Assembly: GCA_030390025.1 (NCBI GenBank)
Contig: CM059431.1
Location: 123,630,001-123,694,000, forward strand
Length of the DNA: 64,000 nt
Direction: 5' to 3'
Source: Squalus acanthias
Lineage: Eukaryota
This document shows positions 39,004-52,657 of this stretch, in pieces. The notes beneath the pieces are model-generated. The model saw only the letters and a program-made list of their open reading frames with translations, made no database searches and was not told where the DNA came from. Position 1 is the first letter of the stretch; each line of letters opens with the position of its first letter. The translations under genes and the position numbers were made by a program.

Positions 39004-39571
39004 TGTAGAATTCGCAATATATCGCGATTTTATTAATAAGGAGAAAACACATAGTTTCGTTCAAACAGCTTTTATTTCAGCAGAATGCTGGCAGGTTTAA
39101 AGTGGACACAAGCAGCCTGTAAAAATGGCCGCCGCACCTCGTGACAGAACATTCTAGACTTTTCAACAGGCAGACAAGATGGCGTTCCAATAAACATTTG
39201 TGCAAGATCGATTAAGAGTCAGCACAGTGAAGATAATACACGAGACATTATGGGTTTGCAGTATACACATAGATACTGAAATCGGTCTCCCAGGTGCAAA
39301 GGAAAGCCATTGTACCGAGTAATCAAGGGCCCATCCAAAAGACATTAATATGTAAAATCCCAACGACTCTACGATGAGAGAGCCGTTAGCAGGTAGTTAT
39401 ACAGGACACTTGGAAGCCCCAAAACCCCTCCAGGGAGATTACCGACCGATTTAACAATGGGAGAAATATTAACAGGTACTCAGACATTTACGAGTAGCCC
39501 CGAAACCCATTAAGAACGGAGATCACCCATACAAGACATTTGAGCGCCAGACCTTAAACAAAAGAATGGAC

Positions 39572-39660
39572 ATTATAGTTGGGCGGGAAACGGAAGATTT
39601 TGCACTATAATTGCAGGCTCCAAACCGTCCATCTTTCTCTTGCTGCTCTTATCATCGTGG
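39572..39660 (+). promoter_or_regulatory. Putative LTR core promoter: GC box, ETS-like CGGAAG, TATAAT, pyrimidine-rich start region
   Basis: gggcggg 39581-39587, cggaag 39591-39596, TATAAT 39606-39611; same TATAAT plus pyrimidine tract layout in LTR 1-681. YY1-like AAAATGGCCGCC / CAAGATGGCG upstream (39122, 39175). Confidence 0.6.
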
Positions 39661-40156
39661 CTGCTCCTGTGTACTCGTAGTTGGGCTTCTGCTTGCCTGT
39701 TGCCTCTTCTGAAAAGACTGTTGAACTTTCTGATCCGTTCGGATCTACCTCGTGTCGCGTAACGAAGACCTATATTGGTAACCGGTATCGGAACCAAAAA
39801 GGCCCGAGAAGAGATGAGATGAGATGAGATGAGAAGAGAGGAAGACCATATCCATCGCCACGGTCAGTAAATCCCGACTGCGCCTGTAGGTCGATTAGCC
39901 AAGTTTTCCTCGCCAGGAAGACTTCTTCGAACTTATAACGAAACATATCGTATCGATGATATCGACAACTGTGCTCGAAAAGTACCTGTTAAACCAACCA
40001 ACACAGGTCTTCATCACAGCAGACGTTCCAGCCTGCTAGCCGGAGCAGCAGAAGCAAGTAAACAAGTGGGACCAGGAGATCTCCTGACCGACACGTGGGT
40101 GCTGCGGTGAAAAACATCCGATCAGCTATTCGGAATTTCTCCGAGTTATCACGAGT

Positions 40157-40165
40157 GGTGAGCAT
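40157..40165 (+). promoter_or_regulatory. Putative major splice donor within LTR R region
   Basis: G|GTGAGCAT conserved in all four LTR copies in the window (358, 40158, 51187, 63398 minus). Confidence 0.6.
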
Positions 40166-40370
40166 GAGTCTCGAAATCCTACGAATCTAGTTTAGGATAG
40201 ATATTGATAGGGGAGGGTTTAAGGATTAAGGATATTTGTAATGTGTGCCCCTATTTACTTTGTGCCGTTCATTCCTCGTTTCCCTAAGATCGACTATATA
40301 ACTGTTTGTAAGATTGTACTGTCATTAATCTGTGCTTATGACATGTATTTCATAATCTTAAGTATCATGC

Positions 40371-40376
40371 AATAAA
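40371..40376 (+). terminator. Polyadenylation signal AATAAA (functional copy expected at 51400-51405)
   Basis: Positionally conserved in the second LTR family (526-531). Confidence 0.7.
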
Positions 40377-40444
40377 GATTTTCCATTTCGTACCATTCAA
40401 ACCGAGTCTACATGAGTTTCATCTCCATTACTGCTCTCGCATCT

Positions 40445-40626
40445 AAGTCCAGTGTCTAGAACCGTAAGGGAGAGTGATTCGAACCACTCACAGGTGTGTC
40501 TAGTGTTCCCAGACTGGCTGGAGACCAGAACAGGCAACAAGGCCTAGACCCGCACTGACATACAGGCTGCACAGAGCCGCGTGAATCTCACAGGCTGCGA
40601 GACACGCAGGGTCAGAATCCCTTACA
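40445..40626 (+). other. Structured U5 RNA element
   Basis: GTAAGGGA (40464-40471) pairs with terminal TCCCTTAC (40618-40625), enclosing stems GAGTG/CACTC, GTCTAG/CTAGAC, TGTTC/GAACA, CTGAC/GTCAG, GCGTG/CACGC. Confidence 0.6.
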
Positions 40627-40630
40627 GAAA

Positions 40631-42442
40631 ATGGCGACCGCGGCAGGACACTGGCAGCGAGAGGGTAGTGTGTTAGATTTTGGAATGACTGTACGAAATG
40701 TTATGCAGGAAAAGATAGCGGATTATGTGTTTGGAAAGGTTAATCTAACTAAGAAATGGATAAGTGAATTGTTAGCGGATAAGAGCCCACTAGAGGCAGC
40801 TGAAAGGTGGACAGATAGTAAAGAACATAGAAAGACACTTGAGAAAGCAGTCTGGCTTTTGTGTTACAAAAGGCAGGTTCAGATTTCAAACCAGACCATT
40901 ACAGCGCTAGTAGCTCGAATCAGTCATTTAGAGGGAGAAATGGATGAGAAGGTTTCTGGAGGGGAGGTGCTCATTAAGAATTTAAATGAGTTACACCAAG
41001 AAAGCCAGGAAGTCTCCAGTCACCTTAAAACAAGGATAGATTATCTCGAGTGCCAGGTCACTGAGGCAAAATTGAATGAGAGCAGGTTAAAGGAAAGATG
41101 TAACCGCCAAGCTGCCCAGATAAGAACTCAAGAAGAGAGCTTAACGGGGGTTAGGGCGGCATATAAGTTGGCCCTTGAGGATAAGTTTCAGGGAGCCGAT
41201 CATAGCGCCTGCCAAAGGGAGATAGAGCACCTCAAAAAGGCCGTGAACAATGCGAACGGCATGGTGTGCCTTATCAATCCGTCGGCACACCAGCCGCTAG
41301 TAAGTGAGAGATTTAAAAAATCCCCACCAAGTAAAGCAGAAGAAGTAGTAGCCACTGCGCCCTCCGCGCCACCCAGCTATTTGGAAACCTGGGTTAGGGA
41401 GGAAGCAATGGAAGAAACAAAAGAGCCCATTGAAAAAGAAGTAGGAAAGGGATCGTTGTATCCAGTAACGGGTATTAAAAGGGGCCCAAGCAGAAACGGT
41501 GGGGAAGAACCGGGGGATCTCCTCGGACAGCTGGTGTTGCCTCACAGTTCACATCAGCTGAGAGCTATGATAAATCACGTACGGAAGCTGACCGAGGCAG
41601 ACGACCCTTCCGTACATTTCCGAGAAGTTGAGCAAGCCGCAGCCATTAACGGCTGCGATGATGGGGAGACAGCAAAAATGCTGCTGTTCTCATTAGACAG
41701 CTCGGTCCTTCAGTGTCTCTCAGGCGAGAGCAAGAGGGGAACCAAGAGTTATGAGGAATTAAAGAATGAGGTCCTGGAAGTGTTGGGGGCGAACGACGAA
41801 GGTCCGTTTGCTAGAGTGGGACAGACAGTGCAGATGGAGGGAGAACCCCCGAAGGTTTTTGCCGACAGGCTGTGGCCAGTATATGAGCGCAGCTGCCTAG
41901 GTGCACCCGAGCGCGAAGATGTGGAAGGCACCGCTTTAACTCATTGGCTTAGGTGCATAATAGCCAACAGTTTACCAGCCGTCAGAGAGCAGGCAAAAGC
42001 ATGGTTTGATCCCAATGACCCCAACATTACGGAAGAGTCGGTCTTGAATCGACTCACGTTAGGTTATCGCAATATAAGGGGTATGGCAACACGTCCCCTT
42101 AAGGGAAGAGTACATGAGGTACGACCCGCAGCCCCGTATCAAAGAGAGTGGCATCAGGAGGGTAATCGCGCCCCACAGGCAAGTAATGCTTGTTACGGGT
42201 GTGGGAAGACAGGGCACTGGCGCAAGCATTGCAGGAACCCTTGGAAGGATTCCAAGGATAAAAATCCCGCGGTCCGAGCCCAGGCGCCTGTCCCGGCTAA
42301 GGAAGCTAGTGCACCCACCCCTCCTGACGACCTAGAAGCAGTGTTAGGAGCCATGCGCAAGCTGGTCTTGAATGCGCGTGGACAGGTGACGGTCGCAACC
42401 GGCCCCGTAGGTGCCGCAGGACCGTCTAATAGTACCCCATGA
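40631..42442 (+). CDS. gag: Gag polyprotein (603 aa): N-terminal coiled coil, PSAPPSY late motif, capsid-like region, one CCHC knuckle
   Basis: Intact ORF; CYGCGKTGHWRKHC (42191-42232); heptad-rich residues ~90-205; Kozak AAAATGG. Confidence 0.93.
   Translation: MATAAGHWQREGSVLDFGMTVRNVMQEKIADYVFGKVNLTKKWISELLADKSPLEAAERWTDSKEHRKTLEKAVWLLCYKRQVQISNQTITALVARISHLEGEMDEKVSGGEVLIKNLNELHQESQEVSSHLKTRIDYLECQVTEAKLNESRLKERCNRQAAQIRTQEESLTGVRAAYKLALEDKFQGADHSACQREIEHLKKAVNNANGMVCLINPSAHQPLVSERFKKSPPSKAEEVVATAPSAPPSYLETWVREEAMEETKEPIEKEVGKGSLYPVTGIKRGPSRNGGEEPGDLLGQLVLPHSSHQLRAMINHVRKLTEADDPSVHFREVEQAAAINGCDDGETAKMLLFSLDSSVLQCLSGESKRGTKSYEELKNEVLEVLGANDEGPFARVGQTVQMEGEPPKVFADRLWPVYERSCLGAPEREDVEGTALTHWLRCIIANSLPAVREQAKAWFDPNDPNITEESVLNRLTLGYRNIRGMATRPLKGRVHEVRPAAPYQREWHQEGNRAPQASNACYGCGKTGHWRKHCRNPWKDSKDKNPAVRAQAPVPAKEASAPTPPDDLEAVLGAMRKLVLNARGQVTVATGPVGAAGPSNSTP
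40632..40649 (+). promoter_or_regulatory. Primer binding site, tRNA-Arg (UCG/CCG type)
   Basis: TGGCGACCGCGGCAGGAC is the exact complement of the vertebrate tRNA-Arg 3' end GTCCTGCCGCGGTCG-CCA as I recall it; 5 nt (GAAAA) downstream of the LTR end. Confidence 0.9.
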
Positions 42443-45400
42443 CTAGAACCGGCGCAGCCCGTCTACCTGTGTCCGCTTAGCTATGATGCGTGGAGGCGAC
42501 CTGTGGTGGAGATGGAGGTAGAGAAACAGAAGGGTAGTTATTTGTTGGACACGGGAGCTTCTTGCACCATAATCCATACAGATAACCCTTTTGACTCGCC
42601 GCTATCTACCAAGGTCCCATTCACGTTAGCAGGGTTCACAGGAAAAGAACAGGCTGGCACGTTTTCCCTTCCGCTATCCATTCGTTTAGGAACACTTCGC
42701 CTTAAGTGGAAGTGTATACTGATGGCATGGCAAAAGGGGGGTGGAAGAGGTATTCTCGGGTCCGATCTCCTAGCGGGACACGGGATCCTCGTGGACCTCA
42801 GAAATCACTGTCTCTGGGGGGCTAAAGGTGAAAAAGGCGAGGTATTAGTGATTCCGGGGGAGGAAGAAACAGGGGTCCTGTGTACCGTACAGCCATCCGG
42901 AGGCTACGACCTCAGGCTCATGGTCGCAGATGTCCCAACGGACATGCAAACGTACGTGTCAGATAATATGCACGCGTTTGCAACCCACAAGCACGATTGT
43001 GGGAGAGTGGTCGGGTTTGAGGTCAGCGTAGATGGGGACCCCATGACCCGACCCCAAAAGCAGTATAACTTCCCCAAAGAAGCAGAACCCGATATGGAGA
43101 CAGCAATGTCCTCCTTGGTGCAGCAGGGCGTGTTGAGGCCGATAGCCACACACGTGAACTCCCCATTATGGCCGGTTAGGAAGCCGGATAATTCGTGGAG
43201 AGCCACGGTGGACTACAGAGTCCTTAACAGTAACATTCCCGCCTGCGCGCCCACAGTAGCAGCAGTTGCCGACCTAATAGGGAGCATCCCAGCGTCCGCG
43301 ACCACGTTCACGGTGCTGGATATCTCGAACGGTTTTTGGTCCATCCCGCTGCGGCGAGAGGACCAGTACAAGTTTGCCTTTACTTTCAAAGGACAACAGT
43401 ACACGTGGAACTGTCTGCCACAGGGTTTCCACAATAGCCCCAGTATTTTTCATCAGTGTATGGCAGGAAGTTTAAAGGAGTTTAGTCAGCCCAATCAGAT
43501 AGTACAGTATGTGGATGATTTGCTCCTATTTACGGACTCAAGGGAGGAGCACGGACCACTACTGGACGAGTTATTGGAGCTGTTAGCGAGAAAGGGTTTT
43601 AAAATAAACCCTAAGAAAGCACGTATCGGTCAACGGGAAGTAAAATTCCTGGGACTGACCATACGCGCTGGGGAAAGAGCCATAGACAAAGCAAGGAGGG
43701 AGTCGGTGCAAGAATTACCGATTCCCAACAACGTAAGGGGTGTGAGGTCCTTCTTGGGACTGACCGGTTACTGCAGGGATTTTATCGAAGATTATGCGGC
43801 CACAGCGGCGCCGCTCCTCCGACTCCTCCATAAGGGGGTGGAGTGGTTTTGGGACGAGGGCTGCCAAGCAGCCTTCGAGAAGTTAAAAGGGGATCTGCAG
43901 ACCGCGCCAGCCTTAGGGGCCATAGATGGGGGGAAGGAGTTTTTCCTGGAGGTAGCTGCCAGCGGAGACAGCTTAAGCGCCGTGCTGCTCCAAGAGCATC
44001 ACGGCAAGCTGAGGCCGGTTGTCTATTCATCCAGGGTGTTAACGGATGTGGAGAGAAGTTTCTCCAATTGCGAAAGGCACCTTTTAGCCACGCATTGGGC
44101 TGTGAAAAGATCAGCGATCTTCACAGGGCTCTCTCCCATCACTCTCCTCACACATCACACACCAACTAAGATGCTTCTGGATGGGAGGATTAAAGACGGG
44201 ACCGTAAGCAGCGCACGCATTGCGCGTTGGACCCTTCTTCTCTCCCAGTTGGATCTTAGAGTAAAAGGTCTTTGCGAGCCCAGGCTTGCGGCCAATTTGG
44301 TATACCCCGGTATAGCCCACCGGTGTTCGGTGGAAGGGGTGTGGGACGTCAACATAGGTTTACGGGCCGGGATACATCCCACTGGGCGCGAGATTTATGT
44401 TGATGGGTCTAGCACAGTATCCGCTGGCGAGCGACTCACAGGGTGTGGAGTTTATGACCCTGCGGCAGACCTTGCCCTGGCGATCAAGCTCCCTAGCACC
44501 ATGAGCGCGCAGCAAGCTGAGCTGTCTGCCGTGGTGTACGTTGTGACCCACCCAGACATTTTCCCAACCCCATACACGATTTGCTCGGACAGTATGTTCA
44601 CCTGCAACTCGTGTACGGAATACCTGGCCATTTGGTCCCGCCGCTGATACACCTCCGCGGACGGGCGACCTTTAACGGTGAAGCCCTTGCTGGAAAAGAT
44701 CTTAGCAGCAGCAGTAGGGGAGGAAGGAGAGATTTTCATCCATAAGGTGAAGGCTCACTCCTCCACAGAGCCCCGTGGGGAAGGCAACCGGCAGGCGGAT
44801 GCGCTTGCCAGGGAAGGTGCCCGCGACGGCACTTTCTGGAACCCCTATAGGACCGGACCCATAGCAGCGGTCCGAGGCGGGGACGGGAATTCCGGGAACC
44901 CCAGGGTAGCATTGCCCCTAGACCTTAAGACCGTCCAAACCCAGGATCCCGCCCTAAAAGCAGTCCTAAAAACGATTGCTGAGGGGAGGCAGGTAGAAGG
45001 TCCGTACAGTACGGCAACCCTTTCAGTTAAGGAAGGCATGCTGTTCCGCGAGGAGCAGTGGGTTGTGCCGCAGCAGCACAGGAGGGAATTCCTCCAGTTG
45101 GCTCACGAGGGACCAGGGGCAGGGCACCCCGGGCCCGAGGTTACCTGGCAACGGGTAGAGCAAGCGGGATGGTGGCCAGGGCTCAGGGAACAAGTCCGCG
45201 AGTTCTGCGCAAACTGTCTTGTGTGCGCTGCAAACAACCCAGACCCCCAGAAAAGGAAGGTGCCCATGGGACACGTAAGAAGGGTAGAGGGACCATGGCA
45301 ATCGATACAGATCGACTATATAGGACCCCTGCCCACCACCCAGGGAGGTTATAAGTACTGCCTCGTCCTGGTGGATGTGTTTTCCAAGTGGGTGGAAGCC

Positions 45401-46966
45401 TTCCCTTGTCGAACAGCTACGGCACTGGGAACAGCAAAAATCTTGGTCCGGGAAGTGTTCTCGCGGTGGGGACTTCCCCGTTTTGTGGAGTCAGACCAAG
45501 GGAGTCATTTCACCGGCCAGGTGATGCAGACCACCCTCATGCTTTTGGGCATTGAAGGGAAGTGGCACGTAGCACACAATCCCCAGTCATCCGGGATTGT
45601 TGAACGTATGAACCGGACCCTGAAGGAGAAATTGAGGAAAGAGACTTGGAACTCGCCCCAAAAATGGGCGGAAGTTCTGCCTTTAGTCCTCATGGGGGTC
45701 CGGGCCAGTCAGTCAAAAAGTACGGGGTACTCCCCGCACGAGGTAATGACCGGGAGGCTCATGCGAACCCCCACCCATGTGCTAGCCCCGGTGCTCACTG
45801 AGGGTCAGCTCCAGGAGATAAGCAGGGACAAGTTCGCCCAGACTCTCTTGGAGCGCCTGAAGCAAGTTTATGAGCAGGCGGCTGGGAACATGGGAAGGCA
45901 GCATCAGGGCAATCGCTTGTTGCTGGAACCCCGCAAAACGCGGGAATGGGAAGTGGGAGACCAGGTCATGGTCAGAAACTACGCCAGAGTAGGGAGTCTG
46001 GAACCACTGTATATGGGACCCTACAACATTGTAGACAAGGCAAGTCCCATGGTTTACGCCGTAAAAGTACCTCGGCGCACTAAGTGGTTCCACATAAACC
46101 AATGCAAACTGTACCAGCCAGGTGCGCAAGGGAAAACTACAGGGGTAAATCCCGCCAACGGGAAAGCACAGCCCCAGGTAGGACCACAAGGCACACAGGC
46201 AGGCATAGCAGCTTGCATCAGGGGAAGGGACATCCCGGACGATCATGCAGCGTTTTTCTGGAATTGGGGGTTAGATGAGGAAGAATTCAGGGTACCCGGG
46301 TCAGATGAGGATAGTGCAGATGAGAATAGTGATGATGACGGGTGGTTCCTGAGGAACGGTCTGGAGGGAATGGGGGCTGTAGGTAGAGATCCACACAGGG
46401 TGGACACACGAGCTGCAGGTCCCGAAGACAGGAGGGAGGAGCTAGAGGAGGCAGGGCCAGCCGCTATGGGAGCACAGAGAGTACCGGTGTGGCTCCCAGA
46501 GATGTGGCCGCCCGCTTTGAACGACCAGTCCTCGGGGGAGGCAGAGATCACGAGTGAAGGGCCGCCTGCTGGGCCAAGCAGGGCGGAGCCACGAACTGCC
46601 AGCCCCGAGGTTAGGGAGGCGGAGTCAGCGGAGGCGGAGCCAGCGACTGTGATGGAACCCCAGGTCATCCCGATGGAAGTCTCGGAACCCGGTCCGTCCG
46701 TCACGGAACCCCCGCCCATAGCAACTCCCCGTAGGTCAAGTAGAGAACCCCAGCCCAGGAGGATGTGGTCATGTCCCCAGACTGCCCCAAGGCGAAAATT
46801 TAAGGTTAAGATAACCCAGTTACAGACCGGCCACATCGCAGCAGTAACAGGCTGCGGCAGATCAGAGGGAAGGGTCAGCGCAGCAACAGGCTGCGGCAGA
46901 TCAGAGGGAAGGGTCAGTGCCCTCCCACCGTCGGGAAGAGCTCGCAGCAGCCTTCTCAGAATTTAA
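42443..46966 (+). CDS. pol: Pol (PR-RT-tether-RNase H-IN), in frame with gag; one premature TGA at 44645-44647
   Basis: LLDTGA (42548), LPQG, YVDD (43508), degenerate RNase H (EVAAS..ERHLLA..LTHH), active-type RNase H (YVDGS..QAEL..SDS..KVKAH..GNRQAD), IN HHCC + QIDY/SDQG/VERMN + GPY. Both ORF halves are in the same frame. Confidence 0.95.
46841..46918 (+). repeat. 39-bp in-frame tandem duplication at the end of pol
   Basis: gcag(t/c)aacaggctgcggcagatcagagggaagggtcag(c/t) x2 = AVTGCGRSEGRVS / AATGCGRSEGRVS. Confidence 0.95.
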
Positions 46967-47252
46967 AGGGGCCGCCCTGAGAACGGGCAGCACTGTATAG
47001 TAAGAAGTTCTAAGTTTTAAGTTTATAGTTCAAGGTTAAGTATATAGTTTTAATAAGGTTAAGTTTGTAGTGTTTTTAACAGAAAACGATAAAATGATGG
47101 GAGTTTTAATGATAGGTTTAGTTAAAGTTTATTCAGCGAACGTTGAAGTTTACGTGAGGCGAGGTCAGGGGACCCGCTCACCCTTCACAAAAGCCAGAGA
47201 CTCTTGCGAGGCTGGCTACCTCATTCTATCTGATCACAGGAACCAAGGAAGG

Positions 47253-49592
47253 ATGGAACGAATTCTAGTATTGCTCGGGGTAATCGGATGTGGATTGGCC
47301 TATCGAGGCCGCACCAAGGATGTCGTGGTGTTTGGATGTTCCGGGGACACGGCCCCCATCGCGGTGGATGGGACCGGAAGACGGGAGGCAGAGGAGACCA
47401 GCACCTATTTCCACAAGGGAAGGTGGCCAGGATGGCTGGGAACGAACTCAACGGAGTATTCTAGCACATCGGGGTTTGCCTACAAAGAGACTTCTTTACT
47501 GTGCCCCAAAGTAAGGATCATCGCATCCAGGATCAGCGTCACCGTCGGCAAACGGATTTGTTTGACTTGTAGTGGGAAGGTCCCATTGAGCCGATGGTGG
47601 TGGCTGCGAAAGCTGAGCAACACTATGAGGAACTCGTCGGTCGAGTGGGAACGACTGGGTAATAATACCCATCGGACAATTACGGGGACAGACGGACAAG
47701 TGAAAGTCTGTTGGGACAAATGGTGGGAACCGGATGAGGGAATTTATGTATGTATGTGGGGGTCAAAGTACGTTTGCCCCAAAGGCATCTCCATATTTTT
47801 CATTAATCAATGGCAGGATAACGGACAGGGGATGAGGTGGGATGCGAGCACCAGGGGGTGCGGAGCCCCATTCTCCCCGATCCCAGTAAATGCCACTGAG
47901 CTCATTACGCGCCCATGCAAAGCCCCGCCCACGATTCCGATGGTTCTAGCTGAGGAAGAAGGGTGCCCTAAAACTAGTAAGGGACCCGGGAATGGTTTGG
48001 TACTGGTCCCCACAGACCAGATACTATTTCAGGGGGTACATTACGCGGTGGCCTCGGTGATTTTAAATCTCACTCAGGTGCGGTTACCAGAGTGGTGCCC
48101 CAAAAAGACGGAACAGTTGTATCAGGTCCTGTTGACCAAGATGTTCAGACAATTTTACGAATTCGATTTCGCGGAAATTGATAAAACAAGTTTGTACACC
48201 GCACCACAAGAAGTTTTGAATCAAGCAGGGAGGCAAAGAAGGGGTTTGGTGAACGATGCGTTCACTGCTTTTAACACAGGTACATCTGTGGTCAACGCTC
48301 TAGACAGTGTGGAGCTGCAGACCCAGATTAATGGTTTAAAGACACAATTAAAAGACATTCTAACAGATGAGAATAAAGTGGTAGGGTCGGGTCTACACGA
48401 GGACCAAGCCATGACTCTCCATTTAAAGGAAATTATAGCAGAGTTGGAGAAACATGCAAAGACGGTAAATGCCCTGATTAGGGAAGATCGGAATGCATCC
48501 GATCAAGCTGCGCAGAACAAGGTGTGCGTGCTTTACGGGGCGTGGTTACTGGGCGAGGGCCGCAGTAATTTGGAGGATTTGGTTCCGTCCTGGATAAGTA
48601 ACAAACACCTGCGGGCGCTCCACCCTTTTCAGAACGCATTAAGTCCGTGCCAACTCAGGCTAGCTTCAGAAGCGTACCCAGTCCCCGTGGACTGCGGACG
48701 ATCAAACCATACCATTATGGGAATAGTATTACGCATGCCGGTTTTGGGCGACACAGCAAAGCCCGCCCCGGTGTATCGGGTAGAGAACATTGGTGTCATT
48801 CAGGGGGGAGCCCACATTCGTTATGCTGCGGTTCCACCTTACGTCATCCGCTGGGAGCAAACGATGACAGGTACAGATCTCTCTGGTTGTCGTGGCAGGG
48901 GAGCACACATAATACTGTGCCCCCAGCACTTGAATGCCTTTTTAACACCACAGTGCGGGTTCAGAACGACTGGCGCCAAGTCCATGAATTGCACCATGGA
49001 GGCAATGGCACAAGATCATGTGCCTCCGCAGGTAGCATACATCGGGGGTGGAACATATTGTGTTACCACTGCAGCGCAACACTACCAGCATGGAAACCGT
49101 AGCCGGTGTCCGGTGAGTGACAGCAGTTTCTGTTTTAAACCCAGGGCGGAAGTTCAAGTAGCACAACAGCGAATTATCCCAATCCCTGAACCATCCACTG
49201 TTCACCTCACAGTAAAAGAGAATTTCACCGACTTGCAGCGATTCGTCGCGCATTTTGGATACCTCATTCCCCCTCTCCCTGAACACCTCACCAAACTTTT
49301 AAAAGCCGTCGCGGTGTCACAGAAACATTTTTACACATTAGAGCAGAAAACTGTTGAAATAGGAACAGACATTTTGGATGTAGTAGTTCCACCGTGGTGG
49401 AATCTGTTCACTAATATTGAAGTGCCTTCATGGATCAGAATAGCCTCCCACATTTTAGTCGTATGCCAAGTTTTCATTGTAGTGTACCTATTGGTCGTAC
49501 ATTGTAAAAGAGACAAACGCCTCACCAAGCATGAAAACACGGGAGAGTGGCGAGAACGTTACGTGCGCGTGCACGATGAAAGCACCGTGTGA
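47253..49592 (+). CDS. env: Envelope glycoprotein (779 aa): signal peptide, Ig-like domain, F-like class I fusion protein, TM, tail
   Basis: MERILVLLGVIGCGLA signal right after a candidate acceptor (cacag| 47239); LTC..WWW..DEGIYVC; furin RQRR (48231-48242); fusion peptide plus heptad repeat; Cys-rich region; TM 49440-49505. Confidence 0.9.
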   Translation: MERILVLLGVIGCGLAYRGRTKDVVVFGCSGDTAPIAVDGTGRREAEETSTYFHKGRWPGWLGTNSTEYSSTSGFAYKETSLLCPKVRIIASRISVTVGKRICLTCSGKVPLSRWWWLRKLSNTMRNSSVEWERLGNNTHRTITGTDGQVKVCWDKWWEPDEGIYVCMWGSKYVCPKGISIFFINQWQDNGQGMRWDASTRGCGAPFSPIPVNATELITRPCKAPPTIPMVLAEEEGCPKTSKGPGNGLVLVPTDQILFQGVHYAVASVILNLTQVRLPEWCPKKTEQLYQVLLTKMFRQFYEFDFAEIDKTSLYTAPQEVLNQAGRQRRGLVNDAFTAFNTGTSVVNALDSVELQTQINGLKTQLKDILTDENKVVGSGLHEDQAMTLHLKEIIAELEKHAKTVNALIREDRNASDQAAQNKVCVLYGAWLLGEGRSNLEDLVPSWISNKHLRALHPFQNALSPCQLRLASEAYPVPVDCGRSNHTIMGIVLRMPVLGDTAKPAPVYRVENIGVIQGGAHIRYAAVPPYVIRWEQTMTGTDLSGCRGRGAHIILCPQHLNAFLTPQCGFRTTGAKSMNCTMEAMAQDHVPPQVAYIGGGTYCVTTAAQHYQHGNRSRCPVSDSSFCFKPRAEVQVAQQRIIPIPEPSTVHLTVKENFTDLQRFVAHFGYLIPPLPEHLTKLLKAVAVSQKHFYTLEQKTVEIGTDILDVVVPPWWNLFTNIEVPSWIRIASHILVVCQVFIVVYLLVVHCKRDKRLTKHENTGEWRERYVRVHDESTV

Positions 49593-50032: not shown

Positions 50033-51655
50033 TGTAGAATTCGCAATATATCGCGATTTTATTAATAAGGAGAAAACACAGAGTTTCGTTCAAACAGCTT
50101 TTATTTCAGCAGAATGCTGGCAGGTTTAAAGTGGACACAAGCAGCCTGTAAAAATGGCCGCCGCACCTCGTGACAGAACATTCTAGACTTTTCAACAGGC
50201 AGACAAGATGGCGTTCCAATAAACATTTGTGCAAGATCGATTAAGAGTCAGCACAGTGAAGATAATACACGAGACATTATGGGTTTGCAGTATACACATA
50301 GATACTGAAATCGGTCTCCCAGGTACAAAGGAAAGCCATTGTACCGAGTAATCAAGGGCCCATCCAAAAGACATTAATATGTAAAATCCCAACGACTCTA
50401 CGATGAGAGAGCCGTTAGCAGGTAGTTATACAGGACACTTGGAAGCCCCAAAACCCCTCCAGGGAGATTACCGACCGATTTAACAATGGGAGAAATATTA
50501 ACAGGTACTCAGACATTTACGAGTAGCCCCGAAACCCATTAAGAACGGAGATCACCCATACAAGACATTTGAGCGCCAGACCTTAAACAAAAGAATGGAC
50601 ATTATAGTTGGGCGGGAAACGGAAGATTTTGCACTATAATTACAGGCTCCAAACCGTCCATCTTTCTCTTGCTGCTCTTATCATCGTGGCTGCTCCTGTG
50701 TACTCGTAGTTGGGCTTCTGCTTGCCTGTTGCCTCTTCTGAAAAGACTGTTGAACTTTCTGATCCGTTCGGATCTACCTCGTGTCGCGTAACGAAGACCT
50801 ATATTGGTAACCGGTATCGGAACCAAAAAGGCCCGAGAAGAGATGAGATGAGATGAGATGAGAAGAAAGGAAGACCATATCCATCGCCACGGTCAGTAAA
50901 TCCCGACCGCGCCTGTAGGTCGATTAGCCAAGTTTTCCTCGCCAGGAAGACTTCTTCGAACTTATAACGAAACATATCGTATCGATGATATCGACAACTG
51001 TGCTCGAAAAGTACCTGTTAAACCAACCAACACAGGTCTTCATCACAGCAGACGTTCCAGCCTGCTAGCCGGAGCAGCAGAAGCAAGTAAACAAGTGGGA
51101 CCAGGAGATCTCCTGACCGACACGTGGGTGCTGCGGTGAAAAACATCCGATCAGCTATTCGGAATTTCTCCGAGTTATCACGAGTGGTGAGCATGAGTCT
51201 CGAAATCCTACGAATCTAGTTTAGGATAGATATTGATAGGGGAGGGTTTAAGGATTAAGGATATTTGTAATGTGTGCCCCTATTTACTTTGTGCCGTTCG
51301 TTCCTCGTTTCCCTAAGATCGACTATATAACTGTTTGTAAGATTGTACTGTCATTAATCTGTGCTTATGACATGTATTTCATAATCTTAAGTATCATGCA
51401 ATAAAGATTTTCCATTTCGTACCATTCAAACCGAGTCTACATGAGTTTCATCTCCATTACTGCTCTCGCATCTAAGTCCAGTGTCTAGAACCGTAAGGGA
51501 GAGTGATTCGAACCACTCACAGGTGTGTCTAGTGTTCCCAGACTGGCTGGAGACCAGAACAGGCAACAAGGCCTAGACCCGCACTGACATACAGGCTGCA
51601 CAGAGCCGCGTGAATCTCACAGGCTGCGAGACACGCAGGGTCAGAATCCCTTACA
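50033..51655 (+). repeat. 3' LTR (1623 bp)
   Basis: Direct repeat of 39004-40626. Confidence 0.97.
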
Positions 51656-52657
51656 TCCTCCTCCTCCTCCTCAGGTGGTGCACCAATCCCTGGTGGCATT
51701 GGCTGGGTCCTCAGGATTGCCAGGTTGTGAAGCAAGTGAGTACTGCAGGGCTCCTCCTGAATGGTCCAGACAGTGGAACCATTGCTTGAGCACGCCGATC
51801 GTCTACTCAATGATGTTCCTGGTGGCGCTATGGCTCTCATTATACCGCAGCTCGGCAGGGGTGTTGGGGTTACGGAGCGGTGTCATCAGCCAGGTGCAGA
51901 GTGGATAACCCATTTCCCCGAGGAGCCATCCAATTGGGTGATGCGGTGCCTGGAAAAGGTCTGGCACACCAGTCTGGCACAGGATGAAAGCATTGTGGCT
52001 GCTGCCAGGAGAGCGGGCATTGACGGCGAGTATGAGCTGTCTGTGGTCACAGACCAACTGCACATTTAAGGAGTGGAACCCCTTGCGGTTTCGGAAAACC
52101 TCTGCATTTTCATGCGGTGCCCACAATGCCACATGTGTGCAGTCAACGGCGCCCTGCACCATGGGGAAGCCCACTATCCTAGCAAAGCCACATGCGCGTT
52201 CATGCTGTTTGGCCCGGGTCATGGAGAAAGAGATGTACTGGTATCTCCTTTTATACAGGGCATTTGTCACCTCCCGGATACAGCAATGGACAGCGAACTG
52301 GGAGATATTGGCGATGTCCCCAGTCGATGCTTGAAAGGAGCCACTGGCATAAAAGTTCAGAGCCACTGTCACCTTCGCTGCCACCGACAGAGACGTCCTG
52401 GTCCTCAGTTGAGGCTGCAGATCTGGTTGCAGCAGATGGCAGAGCTCAGTGACCACCTCCTTGCTGAAGCACAGCCTGCGCAAACACTGCTTCTCAGACA
52501 AATGAATGTAGGTGAATTGCTCCCGGAATACCCTGGGAGGGAAAGGTCTCCTGTGCAGAGGCCTGTTGGCCCTCCTCCCTCTGGCCATGTTTGCCACTCT
52601 CTCTCTGCGTCTCTGATGCCTCCGATTCTGCAGGTGCAAGATGACGCCCTGAATCAA
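51656..52657 (-). pseudogene. Harbinger transposase (HARBI1-like DDE_Tnp_4), disrupted
   Basis: CLRRLCFSK..KVTVALNFYASGSFQ..VQGAVDCTHV..NRKGFHSLNVQLVCD..PGSSHNAF..WLMTP..RYNESH; stop, deletion and proviral insertion near the 3' end. Confidence 0.92.

Follow-up and report, generated by a model that had tools for sequence, protein, structure and literature searches.

A Probable Ig-Like Head on the F-Type Envelope Protein of an Endogenous Retrovirus in Squalus acanthias

Introduction

A 64,000-nucleotide (nt) stretch of the Squalus acanthias genome (GenBank assembly GCA_030390025.1, contig CM059431.1, positions 123,630,001 to 123,694,000), here called the window and numbered from its first letter, holds an endogenous retrovirus (ERV) whose envelope gene, env, lies at 47253..49592. 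What kind of entry protein does this gene encode? A model that had seen the letters alone (the sequence-only reading) proposed that the envelope protein (Env) is a chimera, in which a captured immunoglobulin (Ig)-like domain was fused in front of a fusogen resembling the paramyxo- and pneumovirus fusion (F) protein. Negative-strand RNA viruses, baculoviruses, insect errantiviruses, foamy viruses and lokiretroviruses are all known to have F-type fusion proteins. The means by which each of these lineages attaches to its receptor is an open part of the field, and a compact N-terminal Ig-like head would add a simple architecture to it. We conclude with moderate confidence that this is the env of a recently active ERV, and that an Ig-like N-terminal head sits in it on a complete paramyxo-/pneumovirus F-type machine.

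Results

Env Is Predicted to Contain an F-Type Fusion Core

The env open reading frame (ORF) was divided into segments by hydropathy, motif searches and a predicted structure, whose local confidence is given as pLDDT (predicted local distance difference test). HRA, HRB and HRC denote heptad repeats A, B and C, and residues are counted in amino acids (aa) from the env start codon.

47253..49592 (+), env ORF, 779 aa plus stop, with no internal stop
47253..47309 (+), signal peptide, aa 1–19, from hydropathy, with a predicted helix at aa 2–14
47310..47984 (+), N-terminal add-on, aa 20–244, lacking any counterpart in paramyxo-/pneumovirus F
47505..47792 (+), probable Ig-like beta-sandwich, aa 85–180, with C106, W115–117 and DEGIYVC up to C167
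47793..47984 (+), Cys-containing linker, aa 181–244, with C203, C222 and C238; pLDDT below 50 over aa 167–232
47985..48230 (+), F2-like segment, aa 245–326, with two long strands and an HRC-like helix at aa 284–306; pLDDT 80–94
48231..48242 (+), furin-type site RQRR, aa 327–330, from the motif search
48243..48575 (+), fusion peptide and HRA-like long helix, aa 331–441, with predicted helices at aa 319–376 and 381–441
48669..49202 (+), beta-rich F domains I and II, aa 473–650, pLDDT mostly 80–97, with conserved cysteines
49284..49409 (+), HRB-like helices, aa 678–686, 700–710 and 715–719 within aa 678–719
49440..49496 (+), transmembrane (TM) segment, aa 730–748, Kyte-Doolittle score 2.55, within a predicted helix at aa 726–762

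The sequence GLVNDAF starts at aa 331, directly behind RQRR, and the TM segment is followed by a 31-aa cytoplasmic tail ending at 49589, which holds the only other R-X-K/R-R sequence of Env. All motifs that the sequence-only reading had listed (Ig triad, RQRR, fusion peptide, TM segment and signal peptide) were recovered in place. Its long heptad region appears in the predicted structure as a continuous helix at aa 319–441, and a regular-expression search of the window Env bore out its remark that CX6CC is lacking. To place Env among proteins we used an exhaustive phmmer search of 1.84 billion representative sequences. This gave 48 relatives, mostly shark or skate fragments or gene-model chimeras. 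Four distant full-length homologues, 19–27% identical to the window Env, are P0012 (Mustelus asterias), P0013 (Chiloscyllium punctatum), P0019 (the frog Pelodytes ibericus) and P0039. They too lack CX6CC; equivalents of the R-x-K/R-R site are seen in P0012, P0013 and P0019, and none in P0039.

An AlphaFold2 model of Env, built from a 41-sequence alignment, had a mean pLDDT of 62.9, with values of 80–97 over most of aa 240–310 and 440–650. The helix at aa 319–441 gives the model a post-fusion-like shape, and its top matches are post-fusion F structures. A Foldseek search against PDB returned 234 matches at E 0.001 or better, led by the F protein of human parainfluenza virus 3 (E 1.1e-10) and followed by those of Langya virus, respiratory syncytial virus (RSV), Newcastle disease virus and Nipah virus; foamy-virus Env was matched at 1.8e-6. 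With VIA-align, the best 50 rows listed were all F proteins or foamy-virus Env (Z 8.4–11.5 over 270–342 aligned residues; foamy-virus Env Z 9.7). The structural alignments contain only 8–16% sequence identity between Env and F. They start at model residues 243–245, opposite F residues ∼23–38, which is the mature N-terminus of F. Residues 20–244 of Env are therefore an add-on.

Among the predicted viral structures of BFVD, the top matches were mononegaviral and jingchuviral glycoproteins, among them those from arli-, lispi- and chu-like viruses and from a fish filovirus-like virus, together with baculovirus F and two epsilonretrovirus Envs, those of walleye epidermal hyperplasia virus 1 (WEHV-1, E 8.0e-11) and walleye dermal sarcoma virus (WDSV, E 4.1e-7). 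Coronavirus spikes were matched weakly, at E 1e-4 to 1e-3. ORFs of abalone herpesvirus and ranid herpesvirus 2 also match the Env model.

Sequence comparison sees little of this likeness. A single-sequence phmmer search of Env against PDB gave two chance-level matches only, and the profile of the Env family reached foamy-virus Env weakly (E 0.0078), in the domain I/II region. In Pfam, the window Env matched only DUF6360 and Ig_3 at E up to 1; Baculo_F was found in one of 49 Env family members (E 0.0011), and Fusion_gly (PF00523) is not among the 25 families shown for these 49. The homologue alignments show conserved C, CG and YC columns in the domain I/II region and a conserved IPPL..L region near HRB. 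Cysteines C282, in the F2-like segment, and C425, at the end of HRA, are present in all four distant full-length homologues, at what we take to be the position of the F2–F1 disulfide of paramyxo- and pneumovirus F.

The structural model thus strongly supports the assignment of the C-terminal ∼535 residues of Env to the F-type class I fusogens and not to the gamma-type TM proteins. This agrees with the sequence-only reading, since the AlphaFold and Foldseek check came out F-like (1.1e-10) and a match to conventional retroviral surface and transmembrane (SU/TM) subunits was not seen.

The N-Terminal Module Resembles an Ig Domain

Domains of the Ig superfamily (IgSF) are recognised by a Cys in strand B, a Trp in strand C and D/ExGxYxC in strand F, with the two cysteines ∼55–75 residues apart. 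In Env, RICLTC (aa 101–106, with C106 at nt 47568), WWWLRK (aa 115–120) and DEGIYVC (aa 161–167, with C167 at nt 47751) satisfy this motif through C106, W115–117 and the DEGIYVC sequence, and C106 and C167 are 61 residues apart. The triad, written as C-x(7-16)-W-x(30-65)-[DE]xGxYxC, occurred in 92 of 100,000 composition-preserving shuffles of Env. Only one of the 89 stop-to-stop ORFs of at least 100 aa in the window contains it, and that ORF is env. The N-terminal region also has four N-x-S/T sites, at N65, N127, N137 and N213.

Profile searches point in the same direction with low scores. The Pfam family Ig_3 was matched over aa 85–167 of the window Env (E 0.36, 11.8 bits), in P0006 (E 0.58, 11.1 bits) and in P0010 (E 0.0085, 17.0 bits), in each case below the cut-off of 30 bits, and V-set was matched in P0039 (E 0.045, 14.4 bits against a cut-off of 26). 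Ig_3 is the sole Pfam family matched by more than one of the 49 Env family members (three of them). When a clean profile of five N-terminal sequences was searched against PDB, the only protein found was the Ig variable (IgV) domain of CRTAM, with two matches (E 0.56 and 1.1) whose alignment is anchored on the G-x-x-L-x-C, Trp and DEGxYxC columns. In the ESM Atlas, the ten best family-carrying neighbours of aa 80–195 are all Ig families (scores 0.88–0.90).

Two models were compared for the same region, one of the whole protein and one of the N-terminal part alone. Both predict six to seven strands between aa 89 and 185; in the whole-protein model six strands lie at aa 89–168, with pLDDT ∼50–69. 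Foldseek matched the N-terminal model to V-domain-sized chains of antibody complexes and of IgSF receptors (best E 0.015, probability 0.99). A wide VIA search over 48,161 chains gave 16 at Z of at least 5, with a top Z of 6.1. Ig-like sandwiches make up almost all of the best 50 rows listed, among them ZP-N, the Ig domains of obscurin and titin, TREM-1, CD8 and antibody V domains.

Individually these lines of evidence for an Ig domain are weak, yet they are concordant, and we consider it quite likely that aa ∼85–180 of Env adopt an Ig-like fold. The Ig domain proposed by the sequence-only reading is thus upheld in its exact motif triad and in the fold that is predicted for it; the prediction itself is of low confidence (pLDDT 41–69), and the sequence matches stay sub-threshold.

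The Module Looks Old Within the Env Family

By sequence, homologues of aa 20–244 were found only in the elasmobranch-derived proteins P0002, P0004, P0006, P0010, P0015, P0017, P0026 and P0036. The module is 41–73% identical among elasmobranch elements. Every match to aa 1–230 is an Env fragment or a gene-model chimera containing one, and no host IgSF donor is present among the 48 phmmer matches. A capture of the domain, as first proposed, thus finds no support: the search yielded no donor, and distant shark and frog homologues carry Ig-like N-termini of their own. For an immune-decoy role, which had also been suggested, we found no evidence.

The distant homologues were surveyed for the same pattern. 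The N-terminus of P0013 reads G-x-V-x-I-x-C, W-x-W and S-G-x-I-x-C, its automatic UniRef name is ‘Ig-like domain-containing protein’, and its aa 55–172 retrieve the identical ESM Atlas clusters as aa 80–195 of the window Env. P0019 has an Ig-like pattern similar to that of P0013. The survey that had been proposed as a check thus turned out mixed, with Ig-like N-termini in P0013, P0019 and P0039 and no clear Ig pattern in P0012. Because the distant bamboo shark, frog and P0039 Envs carry Ig-like N-termini, the module looks old within the Env family, as judged from these patterns. It is possible that it is an old, fast-diverging module, or that it has been replaced repeatedly. When the N-terminal alignment was compared with P0013 by hhalign, only the C-terminal HRB/TM part, which is carried by P0002, aligned.

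The top protein match to Env is from the skate Rhinoraja longicauda; this protein is uncharacterised and 76% identical across half of the Env query. Proteins of Xenopus tropicalis were also found. Word-indexed searches returned elasmobranch relatives only, 3 proteins in one search and 10 in the other, and Envs of teleosts or lampreys were not among them. In the shark and skate gene models P0003, P0004, P0011, P0015, P0017 and P0036, Env pieces are joined to host genes or to gag or pol pieces. The host partners include, for example, a Niban 1-like protein and a C2H2 zinc-finger protein (the latter in P0004), and all these models are likely annotation chimeras.

env Is Present in Many Copies, Under Purifying Selection and Probably Expressed by Splicing

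The host assembly (3.7 Gb) was searched for further copies of the element. We obtained 12,865 first-look env candidates; with a 301-nt piece of pol the number was 2,215. The best 58 of the 12,865 env candidates were scored; all 58 are 98–100% identical to the window Env over aa 1–779, and 57 of them have no stop. The family of the element thus numbers at least 58 env copies that are nearly identical; they are dispersed over many contigs with their own long terminal repeats (LTRs).

For the analysis of selection we used 27 copies, consisting of the window, seven loci from the genome search and 19 of 20 further loci (one had no recognisable start). They are 98.1–99.8% identical at the nucleotide level. 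The pooled pairwise ratio of nonsynonymous to synonymous differences (pN/pS) was 0.070 overall (pS 0.039), 0.045 in the F-like part, 0.19 for aa 20–238 and 0.60 in the Ig region. Of the variable codons, 5 are nonsynonymous and 4 are synonymous in the Ig region, whereas the F-like part has 20 and 75 (Fisher p 0.035) and the stretch aa 20–238 has 10 and 14 (p 0.063). Such a contrast would be expected of a receptor-binding part that evolves faster than the conserved fusion core carrying it. The low overall ratio shows that env has been under strong purifying selection, and hence that Env was needed while the family spread.

Two further features of the copies are recorded here. pS climbs about tenfold along env, from 0.008 in the Ig region and 0.015 over aa 20–238 to 0.045–0.052 for the F-like part, reaching 0.076 over the TM segment and tail; recombination between sub-lineages, a recent sweep at the 5′ side or an overlapping RNA element are possible causes. 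The window env lacks four residues after aa 442 (48578/48579), just past the HRA-like helix, that are present in all 26 other aligned copies; residues at this site are also present in the distant homologues.

A contig from sequencing run X1 (depth 12.9, with 21 letters on its shorter side) joins position 40157 to 47240 with GT..AG ends, which places the two splice sites as follows.

40157..40158 (+), splice donor in the LTR, where the exon ends and GTGAGC follows; one run X1 contig
47239..47240 (+), splice acceptor, a pyrimidine-rich tract and CAG followed by G, 14 nt before the env ATG

Because the junction lands 14 nt upstream of the ATG, it supports the env start codon, whose context shows A at −3 and G at +4. 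The donor lies ∼470 nt inside the 1623-bp LTR, so that each LTR carries one. No listed sequencing run that contains the env stretch is on record as RNA; the single genuine RNA-seq run, X15, gave 0 reads, a zero that carries no weight. In runs X1 and X2, env has several times the summed word depth of gag-pol, and in X9 the depth is flat save for two spikes; word depth is a poor measure of expression. Another run X1 contig connects 42474 with 46095 through non-canonical GC..CA ends, so that 3620 nt of pol are left out, and probably represents a deleted family member and not a splice.

The Provirus Is Young and Probably Lokiretrovirus-Like

The complete element around env has the order LTR-gag-pol-env-LTR.

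39004..40626 (+), 5′ LTR, 1623 bp with TG..CA ends, from local alignment to 50033–51655
40631..42442 (+), gag ORF, 603 aa, with one C-x2-C-x4-H-x4-C knuckle
42503..46966 (+), pol, encoding protease, reverse transcriptase (RT), a Ty3-type RNase H-like tether, RNase H, integrase and an acidic tail of ∼280 aa
50033..51655 (+), 3′ LTR, paired with the 5′ LTR in the local alignment

The LTRs align with 1617 matches, 6 mismatches and no gaps, the flank at either side reads TCCT, and the first 300 bp of the 5′ LTR were recovered independently by a repeat search. Their divergence of 0.0037 corresponds to ∼0.8 million years (My) at the rate back-calculated from the available part of Table S1 of PMC7947760, and to ∼1.8 My at 1e-9 per site per year; these ages are orders of magnitude only. 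The window copy itself is defective. Besides the four-residue gap in env, its pol has an in-frame stop at 44645–44647, within the RNase H domain, which is absent from all 29 other copies examined. No second glycoprotein ORF was found in the provirus by ORF list or Pfam.

gag and pol lie in one frame with a single stop between them. Gag gave a weak Pfam zf-CCHC match at aa 520–535 (E 0.28) and weak matches to nucleocapsid proteins in PDB (E 0.13). Its aa ∼60–200 (window 40631–41300) look coiled-coil-like, with weak matches only to coiled-coil families; in the available text of 10.1101/2024.03.25.586437, the Gag of the zebrafish lokiretrovirus-like element Bik-1 is described as having a coiled coil at its N-terminus, similar to the one in foamy viruses. 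A stretch resembling a primer binding site, beginning with TGG, lies 5 nt past the 5′ LTR and overlaps the first gag ATG (window 40627–40650), and the real gag start may lie further downstream. In pol, Pfam detected a protease domain together with RVT_1 (1.6e-36), RT_RNaseH_2 (2.2e-21), RT_RNaseH (8.3e-19), RNase_H (8.7e-9), Integrase_H2C2 (1.1e-17) and rve (4.1e-15). The ∼280 aa behind the integrase (window 46100–46966) are acidic and rich in Pro, Ser and Glu, contain a short tandem duplication near their end and gave no Pfam match at E up to 0.01. Just beyond the 3′ LTR, an ORF of 284 aa at 51806–52657 (−) matches DDE_Tnp_4 (E 4.3e-21), by which it is identified as a PIF/Harbinger-type transposase or HARBI1-like gene fragment.

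To determine the lineage of the element we compared its Pol with other proteins. Pol has a dual RNase H (the RT_RNaseH_2 tether and RNase_H). Among proteins of at least 1251 aa, its nearest relatives are ‘NYNRIN-like’ models of the frog Pyxicephalus adspersus (51%) and of Latimeria chalumnae (50%), while gamma-like ERVs stand about as far away as the Ty3/gypsy elements of ticks, molluscs and plants (∼30–33%). In an RT tree of 31 rows, in which labelled references for lokiretroviruses and for the epsilon, spuma, beta and lenti groups were lacking, the window sequence lies beside the frog and coelacanth rows and belongs neither to the gamma-like ERV clade (100/100) nor to the Ty3/gypsy clade (100/100). 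A comparison with PDB agrees, with matches to the RT of murine leukaemia virus (5.3e-65), foamy virus (2.2e-58), Ty3 (5.1e-42) and HIV-2 RT (4.2e-16).

An F-type Env together with a dual RNase H in a vertebrate host is how lokiretroviruses are described in the available text of PMC7947760 and PMC9040795, and we find it likely that the present element is deep-branching among retroviruses and lokiretrovirus-like. Two other classes were considered. A foamy-like class was rejected on the Cys-His knuckle of Gag, the single frame of gag and pol across a stop and the plain signal peptide of Env. An epsilon-like class, suggested by the BFVD matches, became less likely after the Pol identities and the RT tree, the latter without a labelled epsilon reference.

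Discussion

How Env Might Work

Taken together, the results suggest the following picture. Env would be translated from a spliced subgenomic mRNA, for which one contig holds the junction, as a type I membrane glycoprotein. An add-on of ∼225 aa, with a core at aa ∼85–180 that may be closed by a C106–C167 disulfide, would precede the predicted F-type machine in the order F2-like segment, RQRR, fusion peptide, HRA, domains I–III, HRB and TM. After removal of the signal peptide, furin would cleave behind R330, as the motif suggests, and the Ig-plus-F2 piece would stay tethered to the F1-like piece through a putative C282–C425 bond, by analogy with the F2–F1 disulfide of F. The glycosylated, exposed Ig-like module could then bind a cell-surface receptor, and this binding could release the metastable F-like core into a six-helix bundle and so drive membrane fusion. 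As the provirus contains no second glycoprotein, attachment is either built into the Env chain or dispensable. The single-chain attachment-plus-fusion protein of the sequence-only reading is to this extent reasonable; the part that assigns receptor binding to the module is wholly our inference, and this counts against the picture.

Several results also weigh against an Ig-like head on an F-type core. No evidence for the Ig domain reaches a conventional threshold, the best Pfam score being 17 bits against 30, and P0013, P0019, P0012 and P0002 have no Pfam Ig match even at E up to 10. The model of the N-terminal part alone, built from nine sequences, has a mean pLDDT of 41. Foldseek found no match to it at E 0.001 or better, and the wide VIA search found no chain at Z of at least 8, with values below 8 being common for unrelated sandwiches. 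As for the Ig families among the ESM Atlas neighbours, one third of shuffled proteins likewise get ten concordant families. When the trimmed Ig region was compared by hhalign with P0013, P0019, P0039 and P0012, the score was reached by 1, 9, 1 and 0 of 40 shuffles, respectively. By these sequence comparisons, the N-termini of the Env sub-lineages are not significantly alike, and a shared origin of the module is unproven. On the side of the fusion core, PF00523 has no match in the window Env at E up to 1. The contrast in pN/pS between the Ig region and the F-like part rests on nine variable codons, and the copies were picked from the 58 best protein-level matches, which biases them to low pN; this bias alone cannot yield a pS 14 times pN. 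The splice junction was seen in a single contig, and run X1 is presumed to be RNA by guess only. Finally, none of the six chondrichthyan genomes in the 2020 lokiretrovirus screen was positive, according to the available part of PMC7947760 (Fig. S1).

Other Explanations

The add-on could instead be a generic beta-rich, non-Ig cap that shields or clamps the prefusion trimer like a glycan cap, with attachment left to the F-like body or to non-specific contacts. This would suit the four N-x-S/T sites, the sub-threshold state of all Ig evidence with its low-confidence models, and the N-termini of the sub-lineages, which are not demonstrably homologous; in addition, pneumovirus F can mediate entry in culture without its attachment protein. 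We nevertheless regard such a cap as unlikely, since five independent weak lines point to Ig and to nothing else, the Cys/Trp/DxGxYxC triad arises in ∼1 of 1000 shuffles, and P0013 is named Ig-like in UniRef. The same Ig hallmarks, and the fact that viruses capture host IgSF genes, would fit a domain recently taken from the host whose role is immune decoy or modulation instead of receptor binding. Against this, no host protein is found among the 48 matches, and all matches to aa 1–230 are Env-derived. The module is moreover conserved, at 50–75% identity, across sequences from skate, sawshark and other elasmobranchs, distant shark and frog Envs have Ig-like N-termini of their own, and in the present protein it is an integral N-terminal part of a cleaved, membrane-anchored fusion protein. 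A recent capture thus appears improbable.

The very high copy number, with 12,865 env and 2,215 pol-piece candidates, is more retrotransposon-like, and it could be argued that the family spreads by intracellular retrotransposition only, with env either carried along as a passenger it could do without or domesticated by the host. If env were a passenger, decay would be expected, whereas here pN/pS is 0.07 over 27 copies and 57 of 58 ORFs are open; a domesticated gene would not be expected as copies on many contigs with their own LTRs, but as a single host locus. We give this explanation very little weight. Still less is to be said for a conventional gamma-type or other orthoretroviral SU/TM protein. 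Nothing beyond the generic class I layout favours it, CX6CC is absent, the best 50 VIA rows listed are all F proteins or foamy-virus Env, and Pfam found no retroviral TM family, so that we practically discount it. The preferred reading remains an Ig-like head in front of an F-type core, in the env of an ERV that was active recently.

Implications

If the head does bind a receptor, it would be a third route to attachment for an F-type fusogen, set against the receptor-binding domain (RBD) that foamy viruses carry after HRC and the separate protein of the paramyxoviruses. Should it descend from a host cell-adhesion IgSF domain, entry could mimic a host Ig–Ig adhesion contact. The Ig-like head is a separable candidate receptor-binding domain. 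For an element that bears env, the family is also unusual in its youth and its numbers. Its presence extends F-type retroviral Envs to cartilaginous fishes, a point that matters for deciding whether retroviruses had the F-type Env ancestrally or obtained it from RNA viruses.

A wider reading can be offered tentatively, and we think it more doubtful than the narrower one above. The element may represent an unreported, deep-branching retrovirus lineage in skates, sharks and some amphibians that the 2020 screen missed, that was infectious to the host germ line within roughly the last 1–2 My and left hundreds to thousands of copies, and whose Env bears an IgSF receptor-binding head before F2. Both Chiloscyllium punctatum and Scyliorhinus torazame yield Env homologues here, though both are in the published lokiretrovirus-negative set. 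Table 3 of PMC11089739, in the part available, contains a small number of endogenous elements assigned to ‘Paramyxoviridae’, from amphibians, ray-finned fishes and a single cartilaginous fish. Some of these elements could be F-type retroviral env genes instead of paramyxovirus insertions.

Comparison With Known Systems

F-like retroviral Envs are already known, from lokiretroviruses in 2020 (PMC7947760) and from foamy viruses in 2024 (PMC11468914), as the available text of these papers sets out. An Ig-like module in an F-type retroviral Env was not described in the literature searched, in which subscription journals are mostly not covered. The available portions of PMC7947760, PMC9040795, PMC13709493, PMC11468914, PMC12583693 and PMC11089739 do not mention one, nor do those of 10.1101/2023.10.26.564294, 10.1101/2024.03.25.586437 and 10.1101/2021.11.05.467493. 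The extreme N-terminal Ig-like module, the lineage in cartilaginous fishes and the match of epsilonretrovirus Env folds to the Env model therefore appear to be undescribed. The novelty claimed by the sequence-only reading holds for the Ig module, and the presence in cartilaginous fishes was likewise not found in the literature searched; it does not hold for an F-like retroviral Env as such, published in 2020 and 2024.

Lokiretroviruses, as far as the available text of PMC7947760 describes them, share with the present element the order LTR-gag-pol-env, a dual RNase H and cold-blooded vertebrate hosts; these include anurans and Latimeria chalumnae, the same groups as the nearest relatives of the present Pol. 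In their Env, too, there are a signal peptide and an RXKR-type site, a fusion peptide together with a coiled coil, and a TM segment, and it resembles the F proteins of Mononegavirales. The F relationship by which their Env is defined is found in the present Env by structure and not by a Pfam sequence match: PF00523 is hit by lokiretrovirus Env at 2.2e-7 in the same source, in contrast to none here at E up to 1. The published Env model consists only of a signal peptide, a fusion peptide, a coiled coil and a TM segment, and the word ‘immunoglobulin’ occurs nowhere in the available main text.

The paramyxo- and pneumovirus F proteins show the same domains I–II–III, the same F2/F1 order with the furin site right before the fusion peptide, and HRA and HRB. 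Unlike Env, they have no counterpart of the 225-aa add-on; they belong to negative-strand viruses with a separate attachment protein, whereas the present Env stands alone between pol and the 3′ LTR. The Envs of the epsilonretroviruses WEHV-1 and WDSV resemble it in predicted fold (8.0e-11 and 4.1e-7), and epsilonretroviruses have gag and pol in one frame across a single stop, as in the present element. Their Envs are larger, at 1159–1317 aa against 779, and none is matched by sequence among the 48 phmmer matches. We found no statement in the literature that epsilonretrovirus Env has an F fold; modelling of the epsilonretrovirus SU failed in one preprint, by its available text.

Two systems join receptor binding and an F-related core in one protein. 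In coronavirus spikes, N-terminal receptor-binding domains likewise lie upstream of a fusion core that PMC11468914 describes as F-related; the spikes differ in size, in having several S1 domains, in the absence of domain II (according to the same paper) and in the layout of cleavage. Foamy-virus Env is retroviral like the present one, with an F-fold fusion core and a receptor-binding part in the same chain, as the available text of that paper reports. There, the RBD (residues 217–543) forms an insert between the HRC helix and the furin site, and the ordinary 19-aa signal seen here is replaced by a leader peptide that itself spans the membrane. In the present Env, the HRC-like helix at aa 284–306 nearly abuts RQRR at aa 327–330, which leaves no room for such an insert, and the module precedes the F2-like strands.

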